Origin: Candidatus Woesearchaeota archaeon
GTDB taxonomy: Archaea; Nanobdellota; Nanobdellia; Woesearchaeales; ARS49
NCBI GenBank assembly: GCA_016929895.1
Contig: JAFGHW010000001.1
Coordinates: 135-64,134 of the forward strand
Reading direction: 5' to 3'
Length of the DNA: 64,000 nt
The notes under the pieces were generated by a model. That model saw nothing but the letters and a program-made list of their open reading frames with translations, was not told the origin of the DNA and did not search any database. A program made the position numbers and the translations under genes. Each line of letters begins with the position of its first letter. The first letter of the stretch is position 1. Of the stretch, positions 13,095 through 55,100 are shown piece after piece.

Positions 13095-13104
13095 TCTTAC
13101 TATA

Positions 13105-14079: not shown

Positions 14080-14624
14080 CAGTTATCAATTTCCTCCTGG
14101 CCGTCATATGATTCAAGACAACTTATTTTAGCATTCAACTCATCAATTGTTTCAGACAAATCATCTTTTTGCGATTTTAAAACCTCTTTTTCTTCTTTAA
14201 GATCATCAACCTCAACCTGCAAAGAAGAAGACAAAGCCTTTTCTGCTTCTAAAGAATTCTTAGTGCTGGTAAGCTCAGACTCTGTTTCCACAAGCTCTGA
14301 TTCCAAAGCATTTTTTTGTGTAGTTAACTGCTCATTCTGACCTTCAAGCGATTCCTTTTCCGCACTAACCTCCTGATACTGCTCACCAAGCTGTTCTTCC
14401 CGGGCAGTCTTAATACTTAACTCAGAAGAAACCTCGTGAAGAGACGCCTTCTGCCTGTCCAATTCTTCAGAAATCTTATTCAACTGCTCTAATTTCAAAC
14501 CATATGCTTCGTTAATCTTATCAAAATTATTCTGAAAATAAACAGTCGCGCCAACCAAGGCAGTAGAACTGATAATTATTAAAAATAATAATAAAATATT
14601 TGCGTTTCTGGTAATATAACTCAT
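14076..14624 (-). CDS. Membrane-anchored coiled-coil protein.
   Basis: N-terminal TM helix followed by heptad-rich E/K/L sequence. In the MoxR/VWA operon. Confidence 0.4.
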   Translation of the reverse strand: MSYITRNANILLLFLIIISSTALVGATVYFQNNFDKINEAYGLKLEQLNKISEELDRQKASLHEVSSELSIKTAREEQLGEQYQEVSAEKESLEGQNEQLTTQKNALESELVETESELTSTKNSLEAEKALSSSLQVEVDDLKEEKEVLKSQKDDLSETIDELNAKISCLESYDGQEEIDNC

Positions 14625-14633
14625 TTCGACCTC

Positions 14634-23900: not shown

Positions 23901-25388
23901 CTGGTTCCAATAACAACGATAAATAGTTTTTCTTATAGTAGGAGCTGGAGCAGTGCAAATACCTGCAGAACAAGTGGCACAATCAACAATTTCTTCGTTT
24001 ATACCAGAACTAATCCTTTTATTATCACAAAAATATTCATGCAGTTTTCCATTGCTATCACAATAATCTGTTTTAGATTCCTGAGCAATATTACTTGTAG
24101 TAGTTCCCTGAACTAAATGCTCTCTTCCATTATCTGTTTCCTCGCAAAAAGGAAACATATACCATTTGCCTTCAAGAACACTTTCGCTAGGGCAAGCATC
24201 GGCACTTATTTGAAAATGCTCATCCTGCTGTGAATTCAACAAAACAGGTGCGCTGCCAAGCTCAGTTTTACACCTTAATAAAGGAACAGTCCCTGCCTGT
24301 TCATTATGGTAAACATATCCCAAGTCAGCCCTCCATTCAGTTGCAGGGTCGCATTCATTGGCTGCAATTAAATGGTCATCACCAGCAGGCCAATAACAAT
24401 AAACAAGCTTAACAGTATCATCATGCCTATCCTTGAACACATTGCCGAGAACAAACTCCATATTACCTTCAGGACAAGAAGGGCTCGTATGAACATAATA
24501 ATCATTAGCACCATTTGCTTTAGTTCTTTTGCAAACATATAAAGTGGCTTTTTCTTCTGTAACAGGGGCAGCACTAACCTGTTTTATAAAATTAAAAATT
24601 ATATTTTCATTATTATAGCCTTCACAACCTGCAGAAGAAGAATCCATATGGTCCCATCTTCCGTCTCTAACACTATCCGGAGCATTCCAGCACCTGTAAA
24701 TCTTCTTAGTATCAACAGTTTCTGCTGCCGGAGCATAACCTAAAAGTCCATCCAAACTAGTTCCATCAGGGCAATTGCCTGCAACAGTAAAATGGTCAAA
24801 ATAAGTATGACTATCATATCTTGCATTTCTTATACACTGATTAATAACAACTGTATCAGGCTGTTGAGTCTTATACAAATAACCAACCAAACCGTCTGCA
24901 TTATTGCCATCACAATTAGAATTTTTAGACAGATAATGATTAATAACATGAGGGCCGCCAGACCAGTGCTGAGTCCACCAACAACGATAAACAGGGTCTA
25001 CTTCTGAATCAAGAACAACATTTCCAGTAACAAAATTTGCGAAAAAAGAACCAGTAGGAGTGCTAATAACAGTATCACTCATATCATTGCAATCATAACC
25101 TGCGCCATTAACAATCTCGCACATTTTGGTTTGAAGAAGATCATAAAGAATCGTTATATCATAGCTTGAGTCAACAACAATAGCATCTTCAAAAGAAAGA
25201 ATATAATCAACATCATCATCAACTAAAAACTGCTCAGGAAAATCAGACAATTCAGGAATAGATGGAGGTGTGTACGTATGAATTGCTTTACCATAAAATC
25301 TGCTAAACATGCCTGGCTGGTCAGTGCAACCTGCAAGAATGAATAAAGAAATAATCAGAACTGTAAGCAATATATAGTTACTCTTCAT
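20958..25388 (-). CDS. Giant (1476 aa) secreted type I membrane protein: signal peptide, four ~200-aa Cys/Trp-rich repeats (YRCWW.QHWSGGP.VINHYLS...), EGF-like Cys knots (GHSC..NSDC.SGYC) and one Myxococcus-type CGDG..EQC motif. C-terminal TM helix plus a short basic cytoplasmic tail.
   Basis: Single uninterrupted ORF. Repeats visible at protein and DNA level. N-terminal MKSNYILLTVLIISLFILAGC and C-terminal PVIIILLATAIALGFLVYYVKFLKK. Confidence 0.7.
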   Translation of the reverse strand: MKSNYILLTVLIISLFILAGCTDQPGMFSRFYGKAIHTYTPPSIPELSDFPEQFLVDDDVDYILSFEDAIVVDSSYDITILYDLLQTKMCEIVNGAGYDCNDMSDTVISTPTGSFFANFVTGNVVLDSEVDPVYRCWWTQHWSGGPHVINHYLSKNSNCDGNNADGLVGYLYKTQQPDTVVINQCIRNARYDSHTYFDHFTVAGNCPDGTSLDGLLGYAPAAETVDTKKIYRCWNAPDSVRDGRWDHMDSSSAGCEGYNNENIIFNFIKQVSAAPVTEEKATLYVCKRTKANGANDYYVHTSPSCPEGNMEFVLGNVFKDRHDDTVKLVYCYWPAGDDHLIAANECDPATEWRADLGYVYHNEQAGTVPLLRCKTELGSAPVLLNSQQDEHFQISADACPSESVLEGKWYMFPFCEETDNGREHLVQGTTTSNIAQESKTDYCDSNGKLHEYFCDNKRISSGINEEIVDCATCSAGICTAPAPTIRKTIYRCYWNQHWSGGPTVINHYLSEDPDCGGDTVDGVVGDLYIEQRPNTVPVAQCYRQTRHDSHTYVDHFIFSGTSCPEISYEYNLLGYAPETAVPESKEVYRCWNRPDSVGDGRFDHMVSSDVLCEGYDNEYVIFNFLKPEGAKSKEGEACNVVSDCESGLDCFNNVCVSAPWPNGHSCTLNSDCGSNYCDQSSGLCADSPLPKRNHVYRCWWSQHWSGGPHVINHYLSENANCEGNHVDGFIGDLYTDQQANTVPLYQCIRNTRHDHHTYVDHFVVSNGCPDGTNTHSLLGYAPLIEASNTVGVHSCHNRPDHISDGRFDHMVSIDFACEGYDNEGISFNFLEPVIAPNQEGESCLIAADCVQGLDCIGNVCTAPPWLNGHSCTDNSACVSGYCDADTFVCMDQQYETNPIYRCYWVQHWSGGPHVVNHYVSFESNCGGNSVDGLLGHLYKEQQPDTVPVAQCYRQERYDGHTYVDHFVFSGTSCPDETYQYSVLGYAPVDVVSGTKKLYACWNAPDHITEGRFDHMISTDASCEGYNNEGADYNFLIDAIALGGVPVPSGPYCGDGNIDVGEQCEFDYQCTVNQNCIGCVCVGNATGPPWPIGYACSDNSDCISGYCNPDTNLCDTTPPWANGHSCSDDSDCTSGYCNPSTNVCEDPPTVITSYRISIPDSIPPAGLSLNNFNNLNTVLIGTCNDNSWVENVLGTAECNALTTGRALILVQHNPYRLVVAGDSATGVMVALDVLNRGDVFNLHGPRVDIVYSANVITVSFPHCFDNVQNYDETGVDCGGSCGACPEPSYPPAAPGTPGATGGGGGGSSWYKQTVAEQEVTECMDDWICNAWSACSANGIQTRTCFLNDYPECHLILQKPAETQSCTPEYVPPAKPVASCFDGIQNQGEEGIDCGGPCAPCRVEKPAWLVPVIIILLATAIALGFLVYYVKFLKKPDVLSPLKKYVKDAKSKGFKEPRIRQSLRQQGWSKEDIDKAVK
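22300..25050 (-). repeat. Internal tandem coding repeats (4 units, ~600 nt each) within the giant surface-protein gene.
   Basis: Recurrent near-identical peptide blocks (HWSGGP, YRCWN.PDS..DGR.DHM, NF[IL]). Mirrored by repeated spurious opposite-strand ORFs beginning MINNMRAARP at ~23.1, 23.9 and 24.8 kb. Confidence 0.5.
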
Positions 25389-32521: not shown

Positions 32522-33706
32522 CTAAACCCAGCCAAAATACATAGCAACAAACATTCCAATACCTAATAACAAGATTATTATTCCTGCAATCAAATGAAGA
32601 ATCTTTAACTGCTTTTTTCTCCACTTCTCTGCCTTATGCGTTGTTGTCAAGCCAAAATAAATCGCTCCTGTAATCAGCAGCATAGGAAGAATAAAAATAA
32701 GATTATAAATCAGCAAAAGAAGCAAAGCATAATTCTTTGTAGCAGTCTTTGCAAGCAAACCAAGAATAACAATATACGGGCCAGAAGTGCAAGGCAAAAG
32801 AAACAAACTAACAATAAAACCAATCAAAAAAGCACCAGGAACAGAAGTAACGCCGCCAATAATGCATTTAAGCCTTGGACGCCAAGACACAGGAACTTCC
32901 ATAACAAACCATTTTCCATAAGCAAAAAAATCTTTCAAATTAAACAAACCAACCAAAATTGCAAGAACAGCAACAATTGTATAAAAGTAATGAGTAAATT
33001 TTGCTGCCTGAATAGCAGAATACAAACCCAAACCCATTAAAAAATACGAAATATAAATCGAAAAAGTAAAAGCCAACCCAGCATAAAGAGCGCGCTTTCT
33101 ATTATCTGCTGCCAGAATAGTAGTCAATAAAATAATCAATACAGCAAAAGCACAGGGATTAATAGCATCAACAGCAGCAGCAGAAATAACTGCTCCCAAA
33201 GTCAAGCTCTGCTTTAATTTTGTTTTACCCGGGTCTTCAAGAGGAGAACTCTCAGCAACAATAGAAGTAGTTTCAGGAGTTTTAACATGCTCCATTGGGT
33301 CGTTACATCCGTCTAAAGAACATCTTTCAATCTCTTTTTCTAAAGAAGCTCCAATAGAATCACTAAAACCAACAAAAACCTTATCATCAATAAAAACAGT
33401 AGGCACGCCAGAAATCTCCTCACCAAATGAAGCCGCCATATCCTGAAATAATTCACGATTAGCATCATCAAAATAAATTTCCTTTTTAATAATCTTAATA
33501 TTGCTATATTTTAATTCGATATCATCAAGAAAAGAAATTAACTTAGCACAATGAGGACATCCTTTTCCATAAAAGTCATAAAGAATCACTTCTTTAGACC
33601 CTATACCAATAACAGTTCCAGTGGATGTAAAATTATTAATAGAAAAAACAAGCGCAATAATCAATACAAAAAATAAAAAAAAAGCTGCAATGCCTATTTT
33701 TTTCAT
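32522..33706 (-). CDS. Thioredoxin-domain / CcdA (DsbD-like) fusion disulfide reductase membrane protein.
   Basis: CPHC thioredoxin active site in the periplasmic-like domain. The CcdA TM domain has the conserved Cys pairs INPCAF and LLPCTSGP. Confidence 0.7.
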   Translation of the reverse strand: MKKIGIAAFFLFFVLIIALVFSINNFTSTGTVIGIGSKEVILYDFYGKGCPHCAKLISFLDDIELKYSNIKIIKKEIYFDDANRELFQDMAASFGEEISGVPTVFIDDKVFVGFSDSIGASLEKEIERCSLDGCNDPMEHVKTPETTSIVAESSPLEDPGKTKLKQSLTLGAVISAAAVDAINPCAFAVLIILLTTILAADNRKRALYAGLAFTFSIYISYFLMGLGLYSAIQAAKFTHYFYTIVAVLAILVGLFNLKDFFAYGKWFVMEVPVSWRPRLKCIIGGVTSVPGAFLIGFIVSLFLLPCTSGPYIVILGLLAKTATKNYALLLLLIYNLIFILPMLLITGAIYFGLTTTHKAEKWRKKQLKILHLIAGIIILLLGIGMFVAMYFGWV

Positions 33707-36482: not shown

Positions 36483-37082
36483 ATGGCAAATATAGACCTC
36501 ATACAAAGGTTCATTAAAATCTACAGTTCTGCACAAGTAGCAATAGACTCAAATAACAAAGATACTGCAGAACAAAAATACCAAGAACTTCTTGACCTAT
36601 ATAATATAATAAAAAACTCTGACTTAGACTATAACCATAAAAAAATAGCATACACCCAAATACAAAAAGTATACAATGGAATAAAAGGAATAGACACAAG
36701 AACAAGCATAAACAGATATGTCTTTGCAATAGCAGTATTTGTAATACTAATAAGCTTTGCAGTCTTTGCAAAACCATCATTCTTCGGGCTAACAGTTCTG
36801 GAAGAAGGACTGTATGGAAACCAAGCACCATATTGGAACTCAGAACAAAAAAACTTCGAATTCCAAGACCAACTAACACTAAACCTAAATGAATACTTTG
36901 CAGACCCAGAAGGAGATGAACTGACATTCCTCACAAAACACCAAAAAGGACTAAAAATCGCATTATCTGGAAACCAAATAACTGTACAAAACGACGGAGC
37001 CCGAGGAGAAATCCCATTAGAACTAATAGCATCAGATGGAAAAAGAATGACCAAAGAAACAGTAATACTTACTTCTAAATAA
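36483..37082 (+). CDS. Single-pass membrane protein (helical N-domain, TM, extracytoplasmic C-domain).
   Basis: ORF track, preferred over the low-complexity mirror ORFs 36514..36927(-) and 36629..37114(-). Confidence 0.4.
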   Translation: MANIDLIQRFIKIYSSAQVAIDSNNKDTAEQKYQELLDLYNIIKNSDLDYNHKKIAYTQIQKVYNGIKGIDTRTSINRYVFAIAVFVILISFAVFAKPSFFGLTVLEEGLYGNQAPYWNSEQKNFEFQDQLTLNLNEYFADPEGDELTFLTKHQKGLKIALSGNQITVQNDGARGEIPLELIASDGKRMTKETVILTSK

Positions 37083-37147: not shown

Positions 37148-38572
37148 ATGAAGAAAATAATAGTGCTAATTATAATTCTACTAATCACGGCTCCATTAAG
37201 CAATGCAGAAATTTTCAGACTGGCAAATGTAAAAACATCTCCTTCTAAAATAGATAGAAGAACAGCAACAATAACAGAAGTGCCAGTTCAAATACAAACA
37301 GTATTTCTGCAAACAAATCCCAGAGAAGAAGCAAAAATAATATCAGCAAAAGCAAAATGTGAATCAGAAGACTTAATTGACTATTTCATAATAAAAGAAA
37401 CAACAAGAACACCAATAATTATCACAAAACTAATGCCTGCTACTGAAAAAAATTCAACAGAAATAAACTGCACAATACAATTAAAAATACTGCAAAACAA
37501 TAATACAATAGAAGAAGAAAAACAAATACAACAAACAATCCAATTATACTCAAATCCACTGGGCGAAATAAATGAAAACATACAAAACAAAATAAACCAA
37601 ATAAATGAAGACATACATGATTTTGAAAAACAAATAGCACATCTGGAAAGAACAAACCGAGTTCTGGGACAAATCGCGTCATATTCAGAAACAGCAGCAA
37701 AAGGAGACGCAATAATAACACAAGTACTCGGAGTAATATGGCCAATAGCAGTAGCACTTGAAGAAATCCCCACGCCGTACACAAAAGCAGCAGGAAGACT
37801 CTTATGGAATATAGCCGGAAAAGGACTTCATTCAGGCCACACATTTGTTTTATGGGCGATATGGAATCCCGGGTACAGCATAACAGGAGCCAGCACAATA
37901 CTAAGCACATTCACAAAAACATTGACAATAATGCAATCATGCCAGCTTTGCGATTATTCAGAAACACATACTGCCCTGATAGAACAAGCAGCAGGGGAAA
38001 AAATATTCACATTAGACGACAAACATGGAGAACCAACAACAATAGAGCAATTCACGATATATGAATGGGAGCCATATAAAAGCATACACGTAGCACAAGC
38101 ATGCCTTTGCCTGCCAGCAATTTCATACAATCTGGAAAAAGAAAAACAAATCAAATGCATTTACAAAAACTGCATAGAACAAAACGCAGAATACGGATTC
38201 CCTTTAACAGAATGCGAAAAAACACTAAAACAACAACAATGCCTGTATGTTGACGGAGCAGCCTGGAAAATATCAGGAGGAAATGCAGCGGCGCAAATAT
38301 TCTCTGAAATAACCAACACAATAATGAAACAACTGCCCGTAATATTTGCAGGAGAAATATGGCAAAACCTTTGCGATTATGAAACAGGAGTGTTTTCACA
38401 AGAAGCATATCCTGAAACATTTGGCCAGCCAAATATTCTCTCTGATATGGCCGTGCCATTATGCGCAGCAACAGCAGGAATGCAAATGCTTCAAGAAACA
38501 GGATTTTTCAAAGGAAACAAATACAAATGGGACCAGTACACAGGAAAACTAAAAGGAGATGATTATTGTTGA
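37148..38572 (+). CDS. Secreted protein A of the surface-protein cluster: signal peptide, coiled coil, hydrophobic helices and the shared Cys-rich module (ACLCLPAISYNLEKEKQIKCIYKNC...).
   Basis: Signal peptide MKKIIVLIIILLITAPLSNA. C-terminal module shared with the 1104-aa and 1865-aa proteins. Confidence 0.5.
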   Translation: MKKIIVLIIILLITAPLSNAEIFRLANVKTSPSKIDRRTATITEVPVQIQTVFLQTNPREEAKIISAKAKCESEDLIDYFIIKETTRTPIIITKLMPATEKNSTEINCTIQLKILQNNNTIEEEKQIQQTIQLYSNPLGEINENIQNKINQINEDIHDFEKQIAHLERTNRVLGQIASYSETAAKGDAIITQVLGVIWPIAVALEEIPTPYTKAAGRLLWNIAGKGLHSGHTFVLWAIWNPGYSITGASTILSTFTKTLTIMQSCQLCDYSETHTALIEQAAGEKIFTLDDKHGEPTTIEQFTIYEWEPYKSIHVAQACLCLPAISYNLEKEKQIKCIYKNCIEQNAEYGFPLTECEKTLKQQQCLYVDGAAWKISGGNAAAQIFSEITNTIMKQLPVIFAGEIWQNLCDYETGVFSQEAYPETFGQPNILSDMAVPLCAATAGMQMLQETGFFKGNKYKWDQYTGKLKGDDYC

Positions 38573-39030
38573 ATAAAAAAATAATATTTTTAATTATAGT
38601 GATTTTATTAGCCGCGCTTGTTTACGGCGGAGTTAGAACACCAACAACACCGTGGTATGAAGTAGAAGAATGGGAAATAGAAGTCTGCTCAAAATTCGCC
38701 GGAAACACTGCTCCTGAAAATGCAGAAACAGAAACTGGATTTGCCGCGTACGGAACAACAAGCATGACAATACAAGCATACAAAACAAATCTGGGCGATG
38801 AAAACTTCTATGAAGTATATTATTACATCGAACCATATGAAGAAACACAACAATATATTTTACAATTAGTTAATGAAAACCAAAAACTGAATTATGAAAT
38901 AGCATCAGGCACAATAGGAATAAATGCAGGAGTTGCAGATTATTACACAAATTATTCAACACAAAACTTTAATGAAGTGCGATTAGTGCACAAATACGGA
39001 GCATTCAAGGTTCCGATAATAGAAAGATGA
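38566..39030 (+). CDS. Membrane-anchored small protein B (N-terminal TM, Tyr/Glu-rich ectodomain).
   Basis: ORF overlapping neighbours by 7 nt and 4 nt (translational coupling). Confidence 0.4.
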   Translation: MLNKKIIFLIIVILLAALVYGGVRTPTTPWYEVEEWEIEVCSKFAGNTAPENAETETGFAAYGTTSMTIQAYKTNLGDENFYEVYYYIEPYEETQQYILQLVNENQKLNYEIASGTIGINAGVADYYTNYSTQNFNEVRLVHKYGAFKVPIIER

Positions 39031-41483
39031 AAACAAATAAAGCCAATGCCGCGCCACGTTATGGAAGCAAAGCACAAGTAACACTATTTATTATCCTTGG
39101 AATAATTATTTTACTTGCATTAGGATTAGGAATATACTTTGCAACAAAAGTAATTATCAAGCCAAAAATGCCGGCGACAGAAACCGCGATACAAGAATAT
39201 GTCCAGGAATGCATAAAACAAACAGCAATAATCGCGCTAAAAAAAATAGGGGACAATGGAGGATATATTTCATTTGAAAACAAATACAGAGAATTTAATT
39301 TACAAACAGAACCAGCAGAAGGAGACGGGCTGCCAATCTCTGAAATAGAACTGTACTCAATACCCTGCTGGTGGTATATGAAAACACCAAACCAATGCAA
39401 CAACTGCTATTTAACATCAGACAATATGCCATTACTTCCAGAAATAGAAGAACAAATCAATGAGTATGTTGCTAACAATTTAAACATATGCATTAAAGGA
39501 TTTGCGCCGTTCACTAACCAATACACAATCAAAACAAAACAAGAACCAATAATAGAAACACAAATCACAAAAGACTCAATAAGAATAACTTCTGAATACC
39601 CTATAGAAATCTCAAAAGCAGGGCAAACAACAAAAATAAAAGACTTTGAAACAGAAATAAATGTAAAATTCAAGGACATATATGATTTGGCCACTGAAAT
39701 AATAAACCTGGAAAAAGAAAAATCAGTAATTGAAGAAAGAATAATGCACATGCTGAGCGCGCATATGGGCGCGTCTTATGACAAACTGCCGCCAATATCA
39801 GAAATAACACACGACTATTATCTAATCACATGGGCGAAAGAAATAGTAAAAATAAAAATACAACAAACACTAAACAGTTACATGCCATTGCTTAGATTTT
39901 ACGGAACAAAAAACTCCAAAGAAATAAACTCAAAAAACAAATACACAAAAGGATTTTACAATGCAATGCAAATAAATGACCTCAACAAAAAATACAACTT
40001 ATTTTTAGACATATCCTATAATGACTGGCCGATTTATTTTTCAATAAACCCAGAACCATTAACAGGAACATATCACAAACAAAACTTCCCATATGACATA
40101 CTCCCGCCAATACAAACAAATACATATGAATTTTATTACGACCTGTCTATCCCGCTTTTATTCCAAATAAGAGACTCAAACGCATTTGGAGGAGAAGGAT
40201 ATACTTTGAATTTTGCAGTAGAAACAAACATAAGAGACAATAAAAACCCAAACAACTGGAATATCGGACAAGGAACATTAGGACCATGGGATTCAAGCAA
40301 AACAAAACAAGAAACACTAATAATCAACAGAACATCAGGCAAATGCACTGAAACAGCAGGAAAATACCAATGCAGTATTGACAACAAAAAATACGAAACA
40401 ATAACACAATGCACAGAAATGTGCTACACAGAAAAAAGAATAAGCCAAACAAAAAAAATATTTAAAACAGAGTTCTGCTCTGCTGAACAAAAACTAAGCG
40501 GAAAAATAAAAATAATCGTAAAATCAGGGCAAGAAAAAATAGAAACCGCAGGAATAAGCTACCGCTGCGGAAATTATAAAACCTGTTCTATAGGAATTAC
40601 CGACGAGAACGGAGAAGCAGAATTCCAACTGCCAATCTGCTATGGCGGAGCATTATCAGTACACAAACCAGGATATAAAACTGAAAAAGTTTCATTAAAC
40701 ACAGAAATAAACAAAGCAGAAATAATCAATTTTGACTTGAAAAAAGAAAAAGAATTCACAGTCAGCTTTAAAAAAATGCCTATAACTTCAACAGAAACAA
40801 AAAATGGAATAGAAGCAAGCTGCTGCGACAAAAAACAAAACCCTATTTCAACACAAAAAGCAACATTGAGCATAGAAAAAGTCAAAGAAAATCCTATTGA
40901 CACCTCGTTTGTACAAGCAATTGTTATTGACCAAGATTCAAAAATAAAATTAGTCCCGGGAAAATACAAAGTAACAATGCAATACCTTGACGAAATAGGA
41001 ATAGTAATCCCAGCAGAATGCAAATCAGTCTGCATAGAAGAAAAACAAAACAACGCAATCAAAGCATGCAGCACCGCATGCAAGGAAAACACAGAAATAA
41101 GCAAAACCAGCTGCAAAATAATATTCCCATTAAAACCAGAATGGTGCGAAGACCTGGACTTTGCAAAACAACAATGCGAAGAACACTGCGCAAAAACAGA
41201 ATGCAAAAAATGGATGAAACTGCCTGAAGAAGACATGAACATCAGGCCGGCTTTATTAGGCGGAGCAATGATTGATTCTGAAAACGGATACTGGATTGTT
41301 ACAGAAGCAGACATAAACTCAGGACTCACCAATATCAATTTTTACGTTCTAGAAGTACCAACGCCAACATGCCTTGATACAACAGGATGTGCATACCCGC
41401 CATGCATAGGATTAGACGAAATAGGAAAAATAAAAGAATATTCTGACTTATTCAGACAAGAATTAGAACCAGTATTTAGCTAA
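39027..41483 (+). CDS. Large (818 aa) surface protein P1 with a class III (type IV pilin-like) signal-peptide-like N-terminus and a carboxypeptidase-regulatory-like beta-sandwich motif. Paralogue of P2 and P3.
   Basis: N-terminal ...RYGSKA|QVTLFIILGIIILLALGLGIYF. Conserved blocks GDNGGYI, PCWWYM, GGEGYTLNFA, and TDENGEAEFQLPICYGGALSVHKPGYK. Confidence 0.55.
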   Translation: MKTNKANAAPRYGSKAQVTLFIILGIIILLALGLGIYFATKVIIKPKMPATETAIQEYVQECIKQTAIIALKKIGDNGGYISFENKYREFNLQTEPAEGDGLPISEIELYSIPCWWYMKTPNQCNNCYLTSDNMPLLPEIEEQINEYVANNLNICIKGFAPFTNQYTIKTKQEPIIETQITKDSIRITSEYPIEISKAGQTTKIKDFETEINVKFKDIYDLATEIINLEKEKSVIEERIMHMLSAHMGASYDKLPPISEITHDYYLITWAKEIVKIKIQQTLNSYMPLLRFYGTKNSKEINSKNKYTKGFYNAMQINDLNKKYNLFLDISYNDWPIYFSINPEPLTGTYHKQNFPYDILPPIQTNTYEFYYDLSIPLLFQIRDSNAFGGEGYTLNFAVETNIRDNKNPNNWNIGQGTLGPWDSSKTKQETLIINRTSGKCTETAGKYQCSIDNKKYETITQCTEMCYTEKRISQTKKIFKTEFCSAEQKLSGKIKIIVKSGQEKIETAGISYRCGNYKTCSIGITDENGEAEFQLPICYGGALSVHKPGYKTEKVSLNTEINKAEIINFDLKKEKEFTVSFKKMPITSTETKNGIEASCCDKKQNPISTQKATLSIEKVKENPIDTSFVQAIVIDQDSKIKLVPGKYKVTMQYLDEIGIVIPAECKSVCIEEKQNNAIKACSTACKENTEISKTSCKIIFPLKPEWCEDLDFAKQQCEEHCAKTECKKWMKLPEEDMNIRPALLGGAMIDSENGYWIVTEADINSGLTNINFYVLEVPTPTCLDTTGCAYPPCIGLDEIGKIKEYSDLFRQELEPVFS

Positions 41484-42145
41484 GAAATTTCCTGAATATC
41501 TGAAATAATAAAACAATTATTCCTAACATTTGCAGAAACAATATTCTCGCAATATTCTTTGTTTGACTGGCCAAAAAAGAAAAAACAATTGTCCCTGATA
41601 TCTGAATTTACTATTTGATTGCAGGCATTTGCATTATCAGAATTCTTTGCAACCAGAGAAATACATTCATCACTATTTTCCAAAAGACTGCACTGTTCTA
41701 ATGCAGATTGCGGATTAGAATTACTAAGCTCGCGAATCTCTTCCAAGGTTTTGGACGGGATAGCTTCTGTTTTTTTAACAAATTCTTTTTCAACAATTTT
41801 TTCCTCTATTTCTTCTTCAACATACGGCTCAGAAGGAGCAGCAGGCCTTTCGGACGGAACAGCAATCCATTTCTGCGCTTGTGTTTGTTTTTCAACAGGA
41901 ACCTTTACTAATTCTTCTGCAGGACGAATAAAAGAAATAAAAACCAAACCAACAATAACAAGAATTATTGCAATAATCAATAAAATCGAAAAAGAAATCA
42001 AAAAAGAACGCCTCTTAGCCCTGACGTCTTCCAAAGCCTGCTCAATCTGATAAGAAGAAAAACCCCTTTTCATAAGCTCAAGCTTTAATTCAGGCAAAGG
42101 CATGCCAGAATGCTTTTTAACATAATCCAACAAAGCTCTATCCAT
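41480..42145 (-). CDS. Single-pass membrane protein with a Cys-rich C-terminal domain (opposite strand, inside the cluster).
   Basis: ORF track. TM helix FLISFSILLIIAIILVIVGLVFISFI. Repeated C...N..C spacing at the C-terminus. Confidence 0.4.
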   Translation of the reverse strand: MDRALLDYVKKHSGMPLPELKLELMKRGFSSYQIEQALEDVRAKRRSFLISFSILLIIAIILVIVGLVFISFIRPAEELVKVPVEKQTQAQKWIAVPSERPAAPSEPYVEEEIEEKIVEKEFVKKTEAIPSKTLEEIRELSNSNPQSALEQCSLLENSDECISLVAKNSDNANACNQIVNSDIRDNCFFFFGQSNKEYCENIVSANVRNNCFIISDIQEIS

Positions 42146-42864: not shown

Positions 42865-45045
42865 ATGTATAATAAAAGAGGACAAGTAACTATATTCATA
42901 GTTATAGGACTCATACTTCTACTAGCAGTAGGCATAACAATCTACTTATATTCTGTTCAGGAACCAAGAGTAATTGAACAGGCAGAACTTCCAAGAGTGC
43001 AGCAAGTGCCAATAGAAGCAGAACCAATAAGACAATATGTGCGGGCATGCATAGAAGAAACAGCAAAAGAATCATTAATAAAACTAGGAGAACACGGAGG
43101 ATACATAGACACAACAGGATTTGCATACAATCCAATAGAACCGACAGAAGGCACTGCAGTTCAGTTCTCAAAAAATTCTGAATTAATAATACCATACTGG
43201 CGGCATATGGACTCGCCTAACACCTGTTTCTCAAACTGCCAATTTGACAGCAAAAGACCAACAATACAACAAATCAAAAAACAACTAGAAACCTATATGA
43301 ACCAAAACATAGAAAACTGCCTGGGAAATTTTGAAGCATTCCCAGAATACATATTCTCAAAAACAAAACCGCCACAAACAACAGTAACAATAGGACAAAA
43401 AAACATAGTATTCTACGTAGAATATCCGTTACATGCAACAAAAGGAACAACAACATTTGAAATACCTGACTATGCAACAAATATTGATTTGAATCTAAAA
43501 GAAATATACGATGTATCAACAAAACTAGTAGAACTAGAAAGCCAATACGGATACCTGGAAAAATACACAGGCCAATTAATCTCAGTATTCTCCAGATTAG
43601 ATGAAGATGCACTGCCGCCAATAGCAGAACTAGACATTGGACTAGGAGCAGGAACAATATGGACAGAACCACAAATCAAAGAAAAACTAACAGGAATGTT
43701 AACAAGCTATATCCCATTGCTACAAGTACCAGGAACACTAAACTACAAAGACAGAAACGCACCACAAGGAACAACAGACCCAGAACTATACAGAACCCTT
43801 TACAACAGAAACACAGCAGTATTATTAGACGAAGAAATAAAAGAATTACACCCAGAACTAAAAATCAATTTCAACTATCTTGACTGGTGGGATCCATACA
43901 TAGACGTATGCCCTGGCCAAGTCTGCCAAGCAGAAACAGCAACAAGCTCAATGCCAATGCTGGGAATGGTAATAGGAATACAAAGATACAATTTTGCATA
44001 TGACCTAAGCTTTCCAATACTAATCGAACTAACAAATCCATACTCGTTTAAAGGAGAAGGATACACATTCAAATTCTTCATAGAACACAACATGAGAGCA
44101 AACCAGCCAATGAAAACAAACTATCAAAGAACTCAAATGCTTGACATATCTGAAAACACAATGCTATGCAAAAAAGAACACTGGACTTCAGAAGAATTCA
44201 CGATAAAAGTAAATGACGGAAAAACAAAACAACCAGTAGATGAAGCACAAATCGCCTTTAACTGCGGAACAGAAAGCTGCAACATAGGAACAACAACCAA
44301 CGGAGAAATAAAAACAAAACTCCCGCAATGCATAGGAGGAATGATTCTTGTAGAAAAAAATGAATACCATCCTGCCAATGCTCTTGCAGACACGTCAAAA
44401 AAAGAAGAACAAACAATCACAATAACTCTTGAACCATACAGGCTGATAGACATAAACACAATGAAATGGCTAGTCAAGAAAACAGGACAAAATGCATGGA
44501 GCCTAGATGAAACAGGAAAAGCACACCCAGAAAAAGACGAAGAAACACTGATAATGCTTGAAAGACAAACCTCTGACTTAGAAGAAGCATTCAGAACTTC
44601 AGCACAAATATGCGGAGGACTAACAAAAGCAAAAATTCCATGCGGAGACCCTCCACGAGACAATTCAAAAAACATCAGAATGCTGCCGGGAAAATACAAA
44701 GTAAAAATATTCAATTTCAGATACCCACAACCAGCAGTAATAATACCAAAAGACCTGAGAACATTTGACGCCGGCCCATTTGCAGACCCAAAAAAAGTAT
44801 ACATACCTTCAGAAGACATAGTTTTTGACCAAAAACAACCACTGCCAACAGGAATAGCAGAATTTGAATGGGAACTAACAAAAGATGCACTAGACTCAAC
44901 AAATGAAATAACATTCAATTACTTATACTTTGCACTTGACAAAATACCAAAAAGCAACAGAAAAATCGAAGACTTAGAACAAATAGGAAAAATGCAATCA
45001 TACTCAACACTCTACAGAAAATATCTGGAGCCAGAACTTATATGA
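42865..45045 (+). CDS. Large (726 aa) surface protein P2 with a class III signal-peptide-like N-terminus (MYNKRG|QVTIFIVIGLILLLAVG). Paralogue of P1 and P3.
   Basis: Shared blocks GEHGGYID, PYWRHM, FKGEGYTFKFF, and FNCGTESCNIGTTTNGEIKTKLPQCIGGMILVEK. Confidence 0.55.
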   Translation: MYNKRGQVTIFIVIGLILLLAVGITIYLYSVQEPRVIEQAELPRVQQVPIEAEPIRQYVRACIEETAKESLIKLGEHGGYIDTTGFAYNPIEPTEGTAVQFSKNSELIIPYWRHMDSPNTCFSNCQFDSKRPTIQQIKKQLETYMNQNIENCLGNFEAFPEYIFSKTKPPQTTVTIGQKNIVFYVEYPLHATKGTTTFEIPDYATNIDLNLKEIYDVSTKLVELESQYGYLEKYTGQLISVFSRLDEDALPPIAELDIGLGAGTIWTEPQIKEKLTGMLTSYIPLLQVPGTLNYKDRNAPQGTTDPELYRTLYNRNTAVLLDEEIKELHPELKINFNYLDWWDPYIDVCPGQVCQAETATSSMPMLGMVIGIQRYNFAYDLSFPILIELTNPYSFKGEGYTFKFFIEHNMRANQPMKTNYQRTQMLDISENTMLCKKEHWTSEEFTIKVNDGKTKQPVDEAQIAFNCGTESCNIGTTTNGEIKTKLPQCIGGMILVEKNEYHPANALADTSKKEEQTITITLEPYRLIDINTMKWLVKKTGQNAWSLDETGKAHPEKDEETLIMLERQTSDLEEAFRTSAQICGGLTKAKIPCGDPPRDNSKNIRMLPGKYKVKIFNFRYPQPAVIIPKDLRTFDAGPFADPKKVYIPSEDIVFDQKQPLPTGIAEFEWELTKDALDSTNEITFNYLYFALDKIPKSNRKIEDLEQIGKMQSYSTLYRKYLEPELI

Positions 45046-48000: not shown

Positions 48001-48356
48001 TAATGGGAGAAATATTTGCGATATTCCCATTATTATCATTTTACGACAAAACAGTCAACATGGTAAAAGAATGGTTTGAAAACCCAATAACAATCCTAGG
48101 AGCAGTATCAGGATGCTTGTGCGGAGGATGCGCAGAATTAGGAATAAATCCATTCTGCGGAGAAGGAGAACTAAAAGATGATCCTTTAAGACAAGCAGCA
48201 GGATATGTAATATGCATTTTACCAAAAACAGCTGCAAAAATAATGGATGCAGTAGCAAGCATAAAATCAATGCCAACATCAAAAGATTATAAAATCGGAA
48301 CAAGCTATTGCGACAAAGCAAGAGAACTAGAACTAGACACAAAGTATGGCAAGTAA
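45042..48356 (+). CDS. Large (1104 aa) secreted protein G: signal peptide, Ig-like repeats, hydrophobic helices and the shared Cys-rich module (CFCGPGIIYNLNKIRQINCKYALC...).
   Basis: Signal peptide MKPKIIAGILAMLVIMLTPAYAA. C-terminal ~350 aa alignable with proteins A and K. A GGGGGGWG stretch. Confidence 0.55.
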   Translation: MKPKIIAGILAMLVIMLTPAYAAQMDITKYSGTDEINGYARSSDQITIEATAEMYGSPSMEVAARRLKIYHSGISERFQTCSTIGKTAYKCTYTTTGPYSGQKQFKIELLDADGNVIEATEKTIIIDNLAPIITDFSITPLRGTNKKVTINYKAEDYATTTSDTSTCSGIKEIGFYINNIKVAAEAGQKEQCQKENAIDYTRQVSDYEKINLCARATDMINQQSDPVCKEYEIDNQPPQIISLQLKDADGFDITGMRSGTSLTGSIEAVVKGNNDDVDAVTADLSYLNPSLTGEKMPDERYGNNYVWKDISITNPSNCKVTIRAIDDLGNEIIETKTCTVPVDDTGPEAVKIETNKTDEDGTLLIGKKGTITLEIREAGAGLFKKHVYLDLASLGRKYSSQQRADTCEIKTGDVWECTWEIEPIVPDKDYTIRLSPATRDDLDNSISSSIETTIRIDKQPPTIEDFAFSVKHAFAEYGEKTVKGDTMEFKIKTYGTFYAYANFTGIGGNYAPGTCGGENIRTCEFSQLITRSGPDNATIEFELFDRAGNKQTYSHDLIIYGLSDDTSPEYWNSTVSCSPKLIDRSTTEQKEQMIYCHINLDSTNDDAEPVFTSIDKSLSECRGQLAGISEIQMMNNGYGSKDPYMVITLELAEFAINNMSFSCPIHIASKVGDYFSKADEREIIDVELEFYDLPIGEVYENIEKDIHHEMRKAMTTMSWIDDVEKITEIARKICGYKSTITSLLSALDGVFALFPLLYSALYASGQKGTVDDLEAYRASMCNDARGPAEQFIFGLGEKEAKEKNAEPEAAKTIVERIAGTESSEAKAVQDFWEFIDMFCDFLNCRLTWDDAKYATHKKGVEAGWKESKLGTGEELFLIGGGGGGWGKQGSICTGAQNMLGASWFSEYQTMQDKMRGPGEQRQQLVDVKESLFWSTLCFCGPGIIYNLNKIRQINCKYALCLAEEVKTQGIDPAWCRAEKAYLTCTYVMGEIFAIFPLLSFYDKTVNMVKEWFENPITILGAVSGCLCGGCAELGINPFCGEGELKDDPLRQAAGYVICILPKTAAKIMDAVASIKSMPTSKDYKIGTSYCDKARELELDTKYGK

Positions 48357-48396
48357 AAAAATTTGGGGCAAATTTTTTTGTGTTCATAATAAAATT

Positions 48397-49446
48397 ATGA
48401 ACAATAAAAAATTAATTGGAATATTATTTGCAATGATTTTGTTAGTTAGCATTATTGTTAACGGAGACACAATAAATATCGGAGACAAAATATATCGTGA
48501 AGAAGAACCGCCAAAAGAAAAAATACCAGAACCACAAGAAGAAAAATATCCGATTTTAGACGTATTTGTAACAACAAAAAAACCAGCAACAAGCGCAGAA
48601 GAATTCTTAGAAGAAGATGAATACCCATTTCCAGAAGAAATAGTAACAAAAAAAAGACTGACAGCAGAAGAATATGAACAATTAGAAGCATGGAAAAAAA
48701 GAAAAGCACAAAGTACAGGAGAACCAAGACCATTAGTTGCAGCATCACAATTCCTAACATATTATGAAGAATACAAAGGATTTGCACGATTTGGCTCGTT
48801 ATTCTTTACAAGCGACGGATGGGAAAGACACAGAGAAAAAATAAACCAAATATTCTGCGACACAATACTCTTAGGAGGAACACAATGCTGGACCTCAAGA
48901 ATATGCGACACACAACTATACCCGCTAGTTCCAAGAAGCGTATTTGCAGGAAGAACACCGAGCGGAGAAAGAACAGCAACAGCAAGCATACAAGGAGAAA
49001 AATCATTAACAATACAAGGAGTAGACGATTTTGACAATCCAGTAACACTCCGCCTTTACAAAACAACATATGCAATAAACAACCCATACGAAGAACAAAC
49101 AATAGAATACAACATACAATACAGAACAGAAGATGGATTTAAAATAAACTGGTTTAATGATTCCCAAACAATTCCGCCAGGAACAAGCGCAAAAAGAACA
49201 GAAGCAAATCCACTAATAGACTATGGAAAAAATGATTACACAGAAGCATGCATAATATTCCACCCATCAATAATAGACTACAGAAACTATCTGGGCAGAA
49301 GAATAAGAGAATGGTGCACTCCAATAATAGAATACGTTGGAACAGCAACAAAACCATACCCCACAGCAACAAACACAACAGAAGAAACACCAACACCACA
49401 AGCACCAGAAGAACTTCCGCAAACATCTGGAAAAACAGGTTTTTAA
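48397..49446 (+). CDS. Secreted protein H (350 aa). The start is taken at the internal Met of track ORF 48346..49446.
   Basis: Signal peptide MNNKKLIGILFAMILLVSIIVNG. Acidic Pro/Glu-rich N-region. Thr/Pro-rich C-terminus. Confidence 0.4.
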   Translation: MNNKKLIGILFAMILLVSIIVNGDTINIGDKIYREEEPPKEKIPEPQEEKYPILDVFVTTKKPATSAEEFLEEDEYPFPEEIVTKKRLTAEEYEQLEAWKKRKAQSTGEPRPLVAASQFLTYYEEYKGFARFGSLFFTSDGWERHREKINQIFCDTILLGGTQCWTSRICDTQLYPLVPRSVFAGRTPSGERTATASIQGEKSLTIQGVDDFDNPVTLRLYKTTYAINNPYEEQTIEYNIQYRTEDGFKINWFNDSQTIPPGTSAKRTEANPLIDYGKNDYTEACIIFHPSIIDYRNYLGRRIREWCTPIIEYVGTATKPYPTATNTTEETPTPQAPEELPQTSGKTGF

Positions 49447-49447
49447 A

Positions 49448-50227
49448 ATGAAACAAATGAAAAAAGAAAAAAAATCAATCAAACAAATAATACAAAGAAC
49501 TTTTACAGAATTTTTAGCCAGCTTTAAAGACAAAAACATAATATGGGTATTTTCCTATGACATATGCTTTTTGCTAACCGCCGGAATACTGGCAAAAGCA
49601 GCATCAAAACTAATGTCAACACAATTAGCCAGATTAGGACTAACAAACGTGCAATCACTAACACCAGAAATAATAAGCCAACAACTTGGAGCAATAAAAA
49701 CACTTGCAATAACCTTTTTCATAATAATAATCATTTTTTATCTGCTGTTAATACTCGATTATGCATTATTCAGAGCATGGATATGGACCAAATTATTAAA
49801 CCAAAAACCAACAAAAGCATTTGTAAAACGATTTTTTATATTAAACCTGATTTGGGCAACCGGCTGGGTTACACTGTTTGGCATAGGAGCAACAATACTA
49901 ACCCCAGAATACTATGTTTACATGCTTGGGATAGGAACAATCCTGTACATACACCTAACAACAGTGCTGCATCACAGCTTTGCATGGAAACAAGAAATCA
50001 AAAGAGCAATAGGAAAAGCATTTACAACAGGAATAGGCCATACCGGCTTGTTTTTTATACCATATATTTATATAATAATTATTTATATAATCCTAACAAA
50101 AGCATTTACACTAATACCAGAACAAATACAGTATCCTGCAATATTTTTGATTATCATAATATTCATGGCCTGGTACAGAGTCTATATGAACCAGGTTATA
50201 AAAAACATAGAAAAAAGAGGTATATAA
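49448..50227 (+). CDS. Polytopic membrane protein I (~5 TM). The start is taken at 49448 (MKQMKKEKK), downstream of the track ORF start 49337.
   Basis: Hydrophobic segments throughout. ATG 2 nt after the preceding stop. Confidence 0.4.
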   Translation: MKQMKKEKKSIKQIIQRTFTEFLASFKDKNIIWVFSYDICFLLTAGILAKAASKLMSTQLARLGLTNVQSLTPEIISQQLGAIKTLAITFFIIIIIFYLLLILDYALFRAWIWTKLLNQKPTKAFVKRFFILNLIWATGWVTLFGIGATILTPEYYVYMLGIGTILYIHLTTVLHHSFAWKQEIKRAIGKAFTTGIGHTGLFFIPYIYIIIIYIILTKAFTLIPEQIQYPAIFLIIIIFMAWYRVYMNQVIKNIEKRGI

Positions 50228-52194: not shown

Positions 52195-55100
52195 ATGAAA
52201 ACAAAAAAAACAATTGCAATAATGATGATGGTTTTAATAGTGATGATGCCAATTGTTTATTCAGAACCTTCTGAAACATTTGAATTATTTGCAACAGTGC
52301 CGACTGCAACAAAAGACAACACAGTAACAATAACAGGAACAACCAAAGCAAACATTGATGTAGTTGTAAGCGTAAACAAAGCGCGTGTTGCTGAAATAAT
52401 AAGCGATTCTAATGGAGAATTCTCAACATCACCAATTACTCTTGTTCAAGAAAACAATGACATAACCATAAAAGCAACAGATTCCCAAGGAAACATCAGA
52501 ACATTAACCTACAATATAAAACTAGACAACAGTCCTCCAAAAGTTACTTACATAAACATACCAACAGGAAGCCAAACAAGAACAATAACCATCACTGGAA
52601 CAACAAATGAACCAGTAACAATTGACTGGAAAACAAGCAATTTAACAATCTACAAATCAGTTCAAGCAAAGGATACTTTTAATTTTAATATTGACTTAGA
52701 AGACGGATTAAACAAACTCGAACTAATAGCAAAAGACTCGGCAGGAAATCAAGACAAGCAAGAATTTGAAATAATGCACGATGTAGTTGCACCAAGCTTT
52801 TTATTAACAAACCTTGACGGACTAGACAATTGCTATCTGGATTTCCCGGCAATAAAAGGAAAAAAAGTCGACATAACAGGACAATTAAATGAAAAAGCAA
52901 CAATATTTGTATATGTAAACCATGAATCAAACCCAAGCAAAGTAAGAACAACAGATGAAACAGGATATTTCAGAATAAAAGATGTTCTGCTTGAAGGAAC
53001 ACTAAAAATAAAAACAAGCCCAACACAAACAACAATAGAAACAGGAAACCAATACGAAAATCACATCCGACTTGTTGCAAAAGACCTTGCAGGAAATGAA
53101 GCCCAAATAGAAAAAACAATCACCTGCGAAACATGCGGAGGGGGCGCAGCAGGATATTCATTAAACACAGCATCAGCACTACAAGCAATGACACCGACAG
53201 AATTATTGCCAAGCCTTTTAATAACAGGCATAGAAACAATTACAATACCATTTAACCTAAGCTATGTCGGACTAAATGAAGCAGCAATACGGAGCATACA
53301 AGTAACACCAGTAATAATGGGGCCGGAATATGAAAAAGACTATGATAATGACAAAATAACTGCATCAGTCCTGCCTTTATACTCCAGAGACAAGCAAACA
53401 GCAACAGGAATCATACAAATAAAAATAAACAAATTCGACCCATTAGGAAGTTCTGAAAAAGATGCAACACACTACAGAAGAGAATACAATGTATCAAGGC
53501 ACAGATATGGAAAATGCGCATTCCAGCCAGAACTAGGAAAAGACTTAGATTACGGATGCATGAGATTCTTTCTAATGATGGAAGTACAATACCAAGAAAC
53601 AACTGAACAAACTTATCTAGACCCAAATGTCCAGCAAACAGGACTAAAAAGAGAAAACAAAATACAAAAAATCTGTTTTTCAAACATAGAAGTATCAATA
53701 GCCAAAGTAACAGAACAGTATATTCCTAAAAAAATGGTCAAAAAATGGATAAAAAACATAGACCATATCCTAAAAAAAGCAGAACCAGTAAAAGAATATC
53801 TTGACACTGCAACAGAATATGCAACTTACACATGCCTGGCAAGCGCAGGAACACTTGCACTTGCAAGACTGGCAGAACTAACAACGTGCCAAATATCAGA
53901 ATGGATTGCCTCTATTGGAGAAGCCAGCTGGCACTCAGAAATAGCAGAAGCAGGAATATGCGAACTAGTATATCATGAAGATTTTGATAAAAAGGGCAGT
54001 GAAAAAGGAATCAAAGGAAATGAAAGAGCAAGAAACTCATGCATAGCCTGCTCTGAAATGATAGGACTAAGAAAATGGATAGAATATGAAGTAATGCACC
54101 GTGCATGCGACAGAGTCGGGTGTCCTGCAGCCAAAACATTCAAATCATACATTCAAGACAAAGCAGGAAAAATAAACGACATAACACCATACATAAAAAC
54201 TCATTTTGACAAAGCAAAAGCACAAGGAAAAGAAACAGAAAGCAAAATGCAGACAATACTAACAGAACACGGCGCGCCAATGACACAACAAACAAATGTT
54301 GCCAACAAGAGAGTATTTGTAGGAAATGACTGCGGATTTACAACAACACCAAAATACATCAGCACAACATACAGCGACATTTCTGGAAAAGGAATAAAAA
54401 CATTATACGAATACACAAAAGCCCAAGGACCAAGAGAATACTGCACAAAATATTTGCGGGCAGCACAGCCAGAATGCTGCGGCATAAATTATGCGCGCGA
54501 ATGGAGCACAGCATGCGGAATAGGACAAGTAAGCGGAGAAAATGTTTTCTTACTAGACACATTTGACGAACTAAAAGAAAGCACATGCTATGCAGCAAGA
54601 CAAGCAGGAGACCCGTCAGCAGCAGGAACAGGAATAGACTGCAGCGGAGGAATGCTATGGAATGCAATGGCAGGATTTTGCGAGCCAAACACAGGGGCTG
54701 CAGTAGACGAAGTAATCCACACAGGAATGAATTACGAACCAAGAAAACAAGACTCAGAAGACAACAGAGTTTATGTATTTGTAACACCAGAAATAAATGC
54801 AAAAAAAGAAACAGAAGACTATAAAATATACCGCGGATATGCTGTCAATAAACTAAAATACGAAGCCAACAAAGAAGAACACAAAGACGCAAAAAGATTA
54901 ACACAATCATTATACAAAGTTTATGACAGTGAAAACCTTGCGCATATTTTCAAAAACGAAAAAACTAGTGACAAACAAAAACAAGCTGAACTGAAAACAG
55001 CACTATGCGAAAAAAATAAAAAACAAGATGTTGAAAAATGCGAGAATATAGAAAGAACATACAACAGAATAAAAGAAATAATCGGTTCAGAAGACAACAA

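Follow-up and report, generated by a model that had tools for sequence, protein, structure and literature searches.

Three large proteins with predicted class III signal peptides in a conserved locus of Woesearchaeota

Introduction

What are three proteins of 650 to 820 residues that begin like type IV pilins doing in a genomic region in which no gene for assembling a pilus is to be seen? The question is raised by a 64,000-nucleotide (nt) stretch of DNA from Candidatus Woesearchaeota archaeon (GenBank assembly GCA_016929895.1, contig JAFGHW010000001.1, positions 135 to 64,134 of the forward strand), referred to here, at its full length, as the window. The three genes in question are designated P1, P2, and P3. 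A sequence-only reading of the window had described their products as paralogues with prepilin-like N-termini and had likened them to the minor pilins that carry an adhesin at the tip of a filament. We find that the N-termini have the anatomy of archaeal class III signal peptides and keep it throughout a very large protein family, that the part following the N-terminal helix shows no significant resemblance to a pilin, and that the genes occupy fixed places in a conserved multigene locus. We propose that P1 to P3 are anchors carrying a class III signal, or pseudopilin-like subunits, of a surface and host-contact complex of DPANN archaea, a reading to which we give a probability of roughly 0.55.

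Much of the diversity of archaea belongs to the DPANN groups, Woesearchaeota among them. A life spent in attachment to other cells is commonly assumed for these organisms, and the molecules with which they make this contact are barely known.

Results

N-terminal signal of P1, P2, and P3

The three open reading frames (ORFs) and their translations were found on the plus strand where the sequence-only reading had placed them (Table 1). The paralogy that it had proposed was confirmed by BLASTP (E 1.7e-58 for P1/P2, 1.1e-43 for P1/P3, and 6.7e-40 for P2/P3) and by a three-way alignment in which identity to P1 is about 31% for P2 and again for P3. P2 is the NCBI protein JW851_00285 of a Candidatus Woesearchaeota metagenome-assembled genome (MAG), with 100% identity.

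The N-termini, too, read as had been quoted: ...RYGSKA/QVTLFIILG in P1, MYNKRG/QVTIFIVIG in P2, and MGKKA/QVTLFIILG in P3, the slash marking the predicted class III site. This site lies before Gln17 in P1 (codon at 39075), before Gln7 in P2 (codon at 42883), and before Gln6 in P3 (codon at 50242), and is preceded by a short basic leader of 16 (MKTNKANAAPRYGSKA), 6 (MYNKRG), and 5 residues (MGKKA), respectively. Positions -2 and -1 are KA in P1 and P3 and RG in P2, in agreement with the pattern [KR][GA], and a hydrophobic segment of about 20 residues begins at +2, with Kyte-Doolittle means over 19 residues of 2.98 to 3.06. No other ORF in the window combines [KR][GA]Q with a hydrophobic N-terminus. 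The start of P3 called for some attention: it shares 1 nt with the stop of M, the gene for a membrane protein just upstream, and the frame of P3 is open upstream as far as 49564, where an extension would overlap the M gene, which uses another frame. Since the orthologues begin at an equivalent MxKK[GA]Q, we take 50227 to be the real start.

The motif was present in 205 of 214 family proteins, the nine exceptions being fragments or proteins whose start had been called within the hydrophobic segment. Among the 205, position -2 is K or R in 92%, position -1 is G, A, or S in 93%, position +3 is T or S in 89%, and position +5 is F or Y in 91%; Gln at +1 was required by the search pattern used to collect them. 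In a separate alignment of 56 sequences this Gln never varies, and more than 90% keep a Phe four positions further on. The leaders have a median length of 6 residues (range, 2 to 33), which puts the site within about the first 30 to 35 residues, as in class III signal peptides, and are otherwise unconserved.

The sites cut by EppA in the Epd pilins of Methanococcus maripaludis are RAQI, KGQV, KGQV, KGQL, and KGQI (PMC4371748). EppA needs Gln at +1, and precursors with Gln at this position are not cleaved by FlaK (PMC4371748; PMC3875500). The tetrads of P1, P2, and P3 (KAQV, RGQV, and KAQV) match the EppA site type. Taken as a whole, the N-terminal sequences argue strongly that P1 to P3 carry archaeal class III signal peptides of the EppA subtype, and here the claim of a prepilin-type N-terminus stands, every sequence feature of a class III signal being present; the one departure from EppA substrates is Phe in place of Glu at +5. 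The same anatomy heads an unrelated family of pilin-sized proteins (144 to 241 amino acids [aa]) in related genomes, which begin with M-K-[KR]-[GA]-Q and continue into a different hydrophobic segment; this supports reading the tripeptide [KR][GA]Q as a processing signal common to both families, rather than as a peculiarity of the P proteins.

Alternatively, the N-termini might escape cleavage and serve as type II signal anchors (N-in, C-out) that enter the membrane through Sec/YidC, with K-G-Q-x-T-x-F acting as a helix cap or as a contact for M. It would account for a single N-terminal transmembrane (TM) segment preceded by positive charges, as expected from the positive-inside rule, and for the Phe at +5 in place of the Glu typical of EppA substrates; the co-encoded M could explain conservation at the membrane boundary, and no peptidase is encoded in the window. 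We nevertheless consider it quite unlikely: the conserved positions are those that a prepilin peptidase recognizes (basic at -2, small at -1, Gln at +1), with the leader free in length and sequence, the unrelated pilin-sized family shares the tripeptide in the same genomes, and one contig that carries the operon also carries an A24 peptidase.

The pilin-sized proteins deserve a description of their own. They read MK[KR][GA]Q and then IALVLLGIVAIIA..., have three conserved Cys residues and no Pfam match, and are encoded by one to three genes in tandem (L008:6176-7950, L023:6519-7795, and L001:7513-7989; L numbers designate the related loci) between ThrRS and PTH2-S6e, a few kilobases ahead of the P2 operon. 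In this window they are missing from the syntenic place. Judged by their sequences, they are candidates for the true pilins of Woesearchaeota.

Extent of the family

A word-indexed search with P2 returned 77 homologues, all of them annotated as "hypothetical" and none with a Pfam domain; the organism, where one is named, is given as Woesearchaeota, Aenigmarchaeota, Nanoarchaeota, or just "archaeon." In an exhaustive profile search over clusters of 50% identity, 9,725 representatives reached E <= 1e-3, and 2,045 reached E <= 1e-30. A scan of GTDB species genomes with a 12-sequence alignment gave 26 loci, the credibly labelled records of which are all MAGs of Woesearchaeota or Nanoarchaeia. The P family was seen only in DPANN archaea. 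Several MAGs titled "uncultured Methanosarcinales archaeon" carry the P locus as well (L012, L015, L020, L023, L025, L027, L028, and L030 to L032); these labels are probably wrong, since the assemblies in question carry a locus of the Woesearchaeota type.

Scans of P1 to P3 against Pfam, NCBIfam, and PHROGs gave nothing meaningful, the sole match being a subthreshold one of P3 to DMAP1_like, and there was no match to the Pfam families Class_IIIsignal/DUF361. A profile of the family alignment, run against the sequences in the PDB, gave only matches at the level of chance (E 0.0019 and 0.053). The family and its locus appear to be undescribed in the literature searched. We conclude that P1 to P3 are ancient paralogues belonging to an uncharacterized family of extracytoplasmic proteins, about 700 aa in length and restricted to DPANN archaea.

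Predicted structure

The structure of P2 was predicted with AlphaFold2 from the family alignment, with a predicted local distance difference test (pLDDT) score of 87.1. In the model, a helix formed by residues 5 to 31 (27 residues) is followed by a stretch, approximately residues 32 to 49, which is of low confidence and variable in sequence, its residues 32 to 36 scoring below a pLDDT of 50. A second helix (residues 50 to 76) opens an alpha/beta region that extends to about residue 415 and is followed by beta-sandwiches and short C-terminal helices. We thus describe P2 as a hydrophobic helix, a linker, a novel domain (aa 40 to 420; 42982 to 44124), a transthyretin-like sandwich beginning at about aa 440 (about 44182 to 44440), and further sandwiches ending in C-terminal helices. 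P1 has the same succession after its leader, with a hydrophobic helix, the novel alpha/beta domain, and Cys-rich beta-sandwiches, and contains 27 Cys residues in all.

Modelled alone, residues 40 to 420 of P2 reached a pLDDT of 94.1 and a predicted template modelling score (pTM) of 0.90. Structure comparison of this N-domain gave scores of 5.4 to PilX and 4.6 to GspK, which stood amid equal-scoring gp25/TssE, NTF2-like, and dynein-light-chain folds, and a Foldseek search of the PDB with it returned nothing at E <= 1e-3. With PilX and GspK scoring no better than these other folds and the Foldseek search empty, the head domain has no solved counterpart and its resemblance to pilins is not significant. 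Pilins are defined by an alpha-1 helix that runs unbroken for about 50 residues, its C-terminal half lying against the sheet of the head; the P2 model has no such helix. The 56-sequence alignment shows invariant or near-invariant residues at C62, C152, G75, G78-G79-Y80, W112, W266, Y379, and P384, and a near-invariant strand motif, E407-x-N-x-R-x-N; E232 is conserved as well.

The sequence-only reading had listed four conserved blocks and had compared one of them to carboxypeptidase regulatory-like domains. In the three-way alignment, P[CY]W[WRF][YH] holds in all three proteins. The glycine block is present as GxxGGY[IV], the proposed D/E at its second position being lost in P3 (GLQGGYV), and the block given as FKGEGYTF.F is better written F[KG]GEGYT[FL], P1 departing from the original form with FGGEGYTLNF. 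P1 and P2 show TD.NGE...LP.C.GG clearly, P3 only in a degenerate form. As to the fold, the guess was right: the seven-stranded beta-sandwich superposes on carboxypeptidase regulatory-like/transthyretin-like members, with scores of 9.2 to the SusC NTE domain, 8.6 to CnaB, and 8.3 to SlaB. At the level of sequence it failed, as P1 to P3 gave no match to PF13620 at E <= 0.1.

Search for pilus machinery

The absence from the window of a prepilin peptidase, an assembly ATPase, and a platform protein, which had been noted from the letters, was borne out by Pfam scans of nearly every plausible ORF of at least 150 aa. The Pfam tables of ten related contexts likewise contained no ATPase or platform gene, and crude regular expressions for the Walker A motif of secretion ATPases and for the A24 motif GxGD.K found neither in the 36 fetched loci (607 kb). 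The P genes are therefore not genetically associated with an assembly ATPase and platform protein in the window or the related loci. A Peptidase_A24 gene does lie about 10 kb downstream of the same operon on contig L004; a protein search with a 45-residue N-terminal fragment of its product returned no candidate. According to the literature, type IV filament loci of the Epd-type "system 1," each with its own peptidase, exist in DPANN archaea (bioRxiv 10.64898/2026.04.22.720090), and high expression of archaellins has been described in Woesearchaeota (PMC11606122).

These results bear on the possibility that P1 to P3 are true minor or tip pilins, their ectodomains being displayed on a type IV filament by Epd-type machinery encoded elsewhere. 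The EppA-type class III signal is what such proteins would have, the small KGQ proteins near the locus (L001, L008, and L023) could form the body of the filament, system 1 filament loci exist in DPANN archaea, and so do, in other organisms, modular pilins with grafted domains, such as PilB of Streptococcus sanguinis (PMC8179133). We hold it to be unlikely all the same. The pilin module is missing, a variable linker following the helix in place of a packed alpha-1C; a filament would hardly have room for three ectodomains as bulky as 650 to 820 aa; neither the 64 kb of the window nor the 607 kb of related loci yielded an ATPase or platform gene; and the steady pairing with a polytopic protein and secreted giants, described below, suggests a fixed membrane complex. 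The earlier idea of pilins or of tip-adhesin minor pilins is accordingly not upheld, there being neither a continuous alpha-1 helix nor a significant match to a pilin fold nor a linked ATPase or platform gene, and for P1 to P3 as structural pilins the evidence ranges from weak to negative.

Organization and conservation of the locus

The window is archaeal and AT rich (GC content, 0.32 to 0.39) and contains housekeeping genes for S6e, S19e, L31e, Cbf5, NOG1, subunits of the exosome and proteasome, and ThrRS. When the ORFs of the window were clustered locally with those of related contigs, five co-located families emerged, P, C, Giant, M, and X (Table 1), and the starts and stops of the genes overlap or abut throughout the locus.

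Table 1. Genes of the P locus in the window
Gene	Coordinates	Strand	Length (aa)	Features
Conserved upstream gene	36483-37082	+	199	Central TM segment; weak immunoglobulin-like (Ig-like) C-terminal part
C1	37148-38572	+	474	Sec-type signal peptide; Cys-rich C-terminal domain (13 Cys) in common with C2
s	38566-39030	+	154	TTG start; small secreted or anchored protein; motif WYEVEEWEIEVC
P1	39027-41483	+	818	ORF and translation
Divergent gene	41480-42145	-	221	One TM segment; C-terminus with Cys-containing repeat
P2	42865-45045	+	726	ORF and translation
C2	45042-48356	+	1104	Sec signal peptide; Ig-like N-terminal region; Cys-rich C-terminal domain (33 Cys)
X	48346-49446	+	366	Secreted; conserved Cys-containing C-terminal part
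M	49448-50227	+	259	Polytopic membrane protein by hydropathy; immediately upstream of P3
P3	50227-52191	+	654	ORF and translation
Giant (C3)	52195-57792	+	1865	Sec signal peptide; 40 Cys; last gene of operon

The P1 cassette begins with C1 and continues with s, which overlaps both C1 and P1. C1 is similar to C2 (BLASTP E 3.5e-5), clusters with it and with proteins of 1003 to 1085 aa from L001, L002, and L004, and has no match in Pfam. Small homologues of s with the motif W(Y/E)xVxDWE(L/I)xxC precede the P1-type genes in L006 and L007. The divergent gene, which separates the P1 cassette from the P2 operon, clusters with L002 8317-9489(-), and larger minus-strand genes with the same repeat follow the P1-type genes in L006 and L007. 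The product of the conserved upstream gene clusters with that of a 304-aa gene which lies just before the P2-type gene in L001, and a 299-aa gene has the same position in L008.

In the P2 operon the start of C2 overlaps the stop of P2 (ATGA), and orthologues of C2 directly follow P2-type genes in L001, L002, L004, L006, and L008. X, which clusters with an 870-aa protein of L001, keeps its position in other lineages at lengths of 416 to 985 aa. An M-type gene usually stands before both P1- and P3-type genes (before the former in L006, L007, and L010) and in this window only before P3. The idea that M is a dedicated peptidase or a platform protein was considered and rejected; it is not a peptidase, since an alignment of six members has no Asp, Glu, or His that is invariant. 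The N-terminal Ig-like domains of the Giant belong to the Pfam families Glucodextran_B, Big_6, and Big_13. The C and Giant proteins, for all their Sec-type signal peptides, have no clear anchor.

The order P2-C2-X-M-P3-Giant recurs in L001, L002, L004, and L008, and L006, which is cut downstream, shows P2-C2-X-M. The cassette C1-s-(M')-P1 lies just upstream in L006; in L007 it occurs with no P2 detected. P1-type orthologues of 800 to 905 aa occupy the same position in L006, L007, L012 to L014, L016, L032, and L034, and in L012 to L014, L016, L032, and L034 they precede a P2-type gene. P3-type orthologues of 625 to 689 aa hold the same place in the operon in L001, L002, L004, L008, L014, L017 to L020, L024, L029, and L034. 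Many of the 26 GTDB loci also have P2- and P3-type genes with their spacing unchanged, and all three types occur together in L014 and L034. Such fixed places across lineages mean that P1, P2, and P3 are ancient, position-specific paralogues and not recent duplicates. The pairing with M and the tight operons with Sec-secreted giants suggest, in turn, that the context is that of a membrane-anchored surface complex.

Small pilin genes were also considered just upstream of the P2- and P3-type genes and rejected, the small ORFs there being regulator-like by eye. Three of them, L002:9805-10011, L006:8816-8983, and L002:19366-19524, were judged by eye to encode ribbon-helix-helix (CopG-like) and AbrB/SpoVT-like proteins. 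Small CopG-like and AbrB-like genes may control the locus. In the 272-nt spacer before P2 in this window no equivalent regulator ORF was seen.

Signs of extracellular exposure and partner domains

The P proteins contain 8 to 27 Cys residues, and N-glycosylation sequons are significantly depleted in P1 (1 versus 7.0 expected), P2 (0 versus 4.5), and the Giant (4 versus 11.7), but not in C1, C2, X, and M. The Cys content and sequon depletion of P1, P2, and the Giant fit an exposure of these proteins outside the cell. Elsewhere in the window, the minus-strand gene at 32522-33706, which is near many genes for Cys-rich secreted proteins, encodes a glutaredoxin-like domain fused to a DsbD-type membrane domain; its sequence would fit an extracytoplasmic thiol-disulfide system.

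Two of the partner proteins in other lineages carry murein hydrolase domains. At its C-terminus the Giant orthologue of L004 (L004:11850-16649) has a Glucosaminidase domain that passes the Pfam threshold (E 1.2e-16), and a 1215-aa protein encoded after the P gene in L005 (L005:11961-15608) has an SLT-like region (E 8e-4, just below the threshold) with the signature ES...GIMQI. When these two domains were used as queries against all loci, the ends of which truncate most of the Giant genes, only self-matches were returned, and the SLT motif ES...GLMQ is absent from the C1, C2, C3, X, and P proteins of the window. "Large lytic murein transglycosylases" have been reported from Woesearchaeota MAGs and read as a sign of predation on bacteria (PMC9723730; PMC12352652). 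The present data place at least some proteins of this kind in the P locus.

A locus of this kind might instead encode a surface layer (S-layer) or envelope lattice, with the P proteins as SlaB-like stalks and the Cys-rich giants as a SlaA-like canopy, and with no specific role in host contact. Its wide occurrence in synteny beside housekeeping genes (ThrRS, PTH2, and S6e) would suit a general envelope function, as would partners that are large, secreted, and without anchors. We regard this as improbable, because the match to SlaB comes from generic beta-sandwiches and SlaB is anchored at its C-terminus, because a lattice of at least nine gene products with three distinct anchors would be unusual, because the murein hydrolase domains of some partners point outward to another cell, and because the same window offers a better S-layer candidate at 20958-25388 (-). 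The latter gene encodes a protein of 1476 aa with 85 Cys residues, a lipobox-like N-terminus (LFILAGC), a C-terminal TM segment, and no Pfam match, and its sequons are extremely depleted (1 versus 12 expected). From these features it is possibly an S-layer or envelope protein.

Other features of the window

A minus-strand cluster at 11141-18802 encodes MoxR AAA+, DUF58, DUF7502, coiled-coil, VWA, and BatA-VWA-DUF7407-DUF7408 proteins and resembles a Bat-type "aerotolerance" operon. At 5111-5203 (-), Rfam found a tRNA gene (52.6 bits) that spans 93 nt against a model of 71 positions, while ARAGORN reported no tRNA in the window; this gene probably contains an archaeal intron.

Discussion

The proposal that P1 to P3 are anchors or pseudopilin-like subunits of a DPANN surface complex can be put as a sequence of steps. 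A prepilin peptidase of the A24 family, its gene lying elsewhere in this genome, would remove the basic leader of 5 to 16 residues between [GA] and Gln. The mature protein would keep a hydrophobic N-terminal helix of 20 to 25 residues, which a flexible linker of about 15 to 20 residues would join to the novel alpha/beta domain of 380 residues and the stack of transthyretin-like sandwiches behind it. The P proteins would not polymerize as pilus subunits; the helix would either stay in the membrane beside M or take part in a short heteromeric bundle of P1, P2, and P3 resembling a pseudopilus. The ectodomains, finally, would hold the secreted, anchorless, Cys-rich, Ig-like giants on the cell surface, so that the locus of about 21 kb would encode a multisubunit surface and host-contact complex of Woesearchaeota, armed in some lineages with a murein hydrolase.

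Several points weigh against this proposal. The cleavage of P1 to P3 by a prepilin peptidase is a prediction from their sequences, and position +5 is Phe or Tyr and not the Glu of EppA substrates. The A24 peptidase of this genome is presumed, the search for it having covered the window. Unlinked machinery does not exclude incorporation into a filament, since archaeal pilin genes are often unlinked. The low confidence of AlphaFold in the linker does not prove that it is flexible. An interaction between the P proteins and the giants is suggested by operon structure only, and a murein hydrolase domain occurs in just two partners, below the Pfam threshold in one of them, and in none of those in the window.

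A more far-reaching version, which we put forward as a speculation and think somewhat unlikely, would have the order C1-s-(M')-P1 / P2-C2-X-M-P3-Giant specify a new archaeal surface organelle. In it, EppA-type-cleaved P paralogues would form with M a pseudopilus or anchor that has no linked ATPase and displays giant, disulfide-rich adhesins or lysins for attachment and, in some lineages, for breaching a wall, and the head of the P proteins would have a fold unseen in solved structures.

Whichever version holds, the findings define a very large unannotated family, with 9,725 clusters and no Pfam or NCBIfam model, an EppA-type site with an invariant Gln as a testable biochemical handle, a confidently modelled domain with no counterpart in the PDB, and a syntenic, multigene surface locus. 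If the processing is true, pilin-type signals on surface proteins that do not form filaments, which are best known from the Sulfolobus bindosome, extend to DPANN archaea; and since the partners sometimes carry murein hydrolases, the locus would then stand as a concrete candidate for an apparatus that serves in host attachment or in predation.

Among known systems, the nearest relatives of P1 to P3 in terms of the signal peptide are the Epd pilins of Methanococcus. Those of M. maripaludis likewise have a short basic leader ending in G or A, Gln at +1, the same type of tetrad, and a hydrophobic helix next. In M. maripaludis EppA substrates, as in bacterial type IV pilins, Glu at +5 is conserved. 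The two groups differ in that the Epd pilins have this Glu, are 67 to about 200 aa long, and are encoded with EpdL/J/K or depend on them, whereas P1 to P3 have Phe at +5, are 654 to 818 aa long, and are not linked to assembly genes.

In the modular and minor pilins, such as PilB and PilC of S. sanguinis, GspK, and PilX, it is a complete pilin module, made of a continuous alpha-1 helix and a sheet, that bears the extra domain. P1 to P3, in contrast, consist of a helix, a linker, and an unrelated domain, for which the comparison scores were not significant and the Foldseek search was negative. The carboxypeptidase regulatory-like/transthyretin-like sandwich (PF13620 clan) is a common spacer or stalk module and conveys little information on function.

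As a functional analogy for the proposed surface complex, the nearest would be the bindosome of Sulfolobus. Its proteins have the folds of substrate-binding proteins (SBPs), adjacent ATP-binding cassette (ABC) transporters, and a PibD-type site, and their display depends on the Bas ATPase and a membrane system; P1 to P3 have instead the novel domain and transthyretin-like sandwiches, an EppA-type site, and a context free of transporters, and are thus not bindosome proteins as far as SBP folds and ABC transporters define these. What the two would have in common is the principle (PMC3047682) of large globular extracellular proteins with a pilin-type signal whose hydrophobic N-terminus serves as an element of anchoring or oligomerization and not as a filament subunit.

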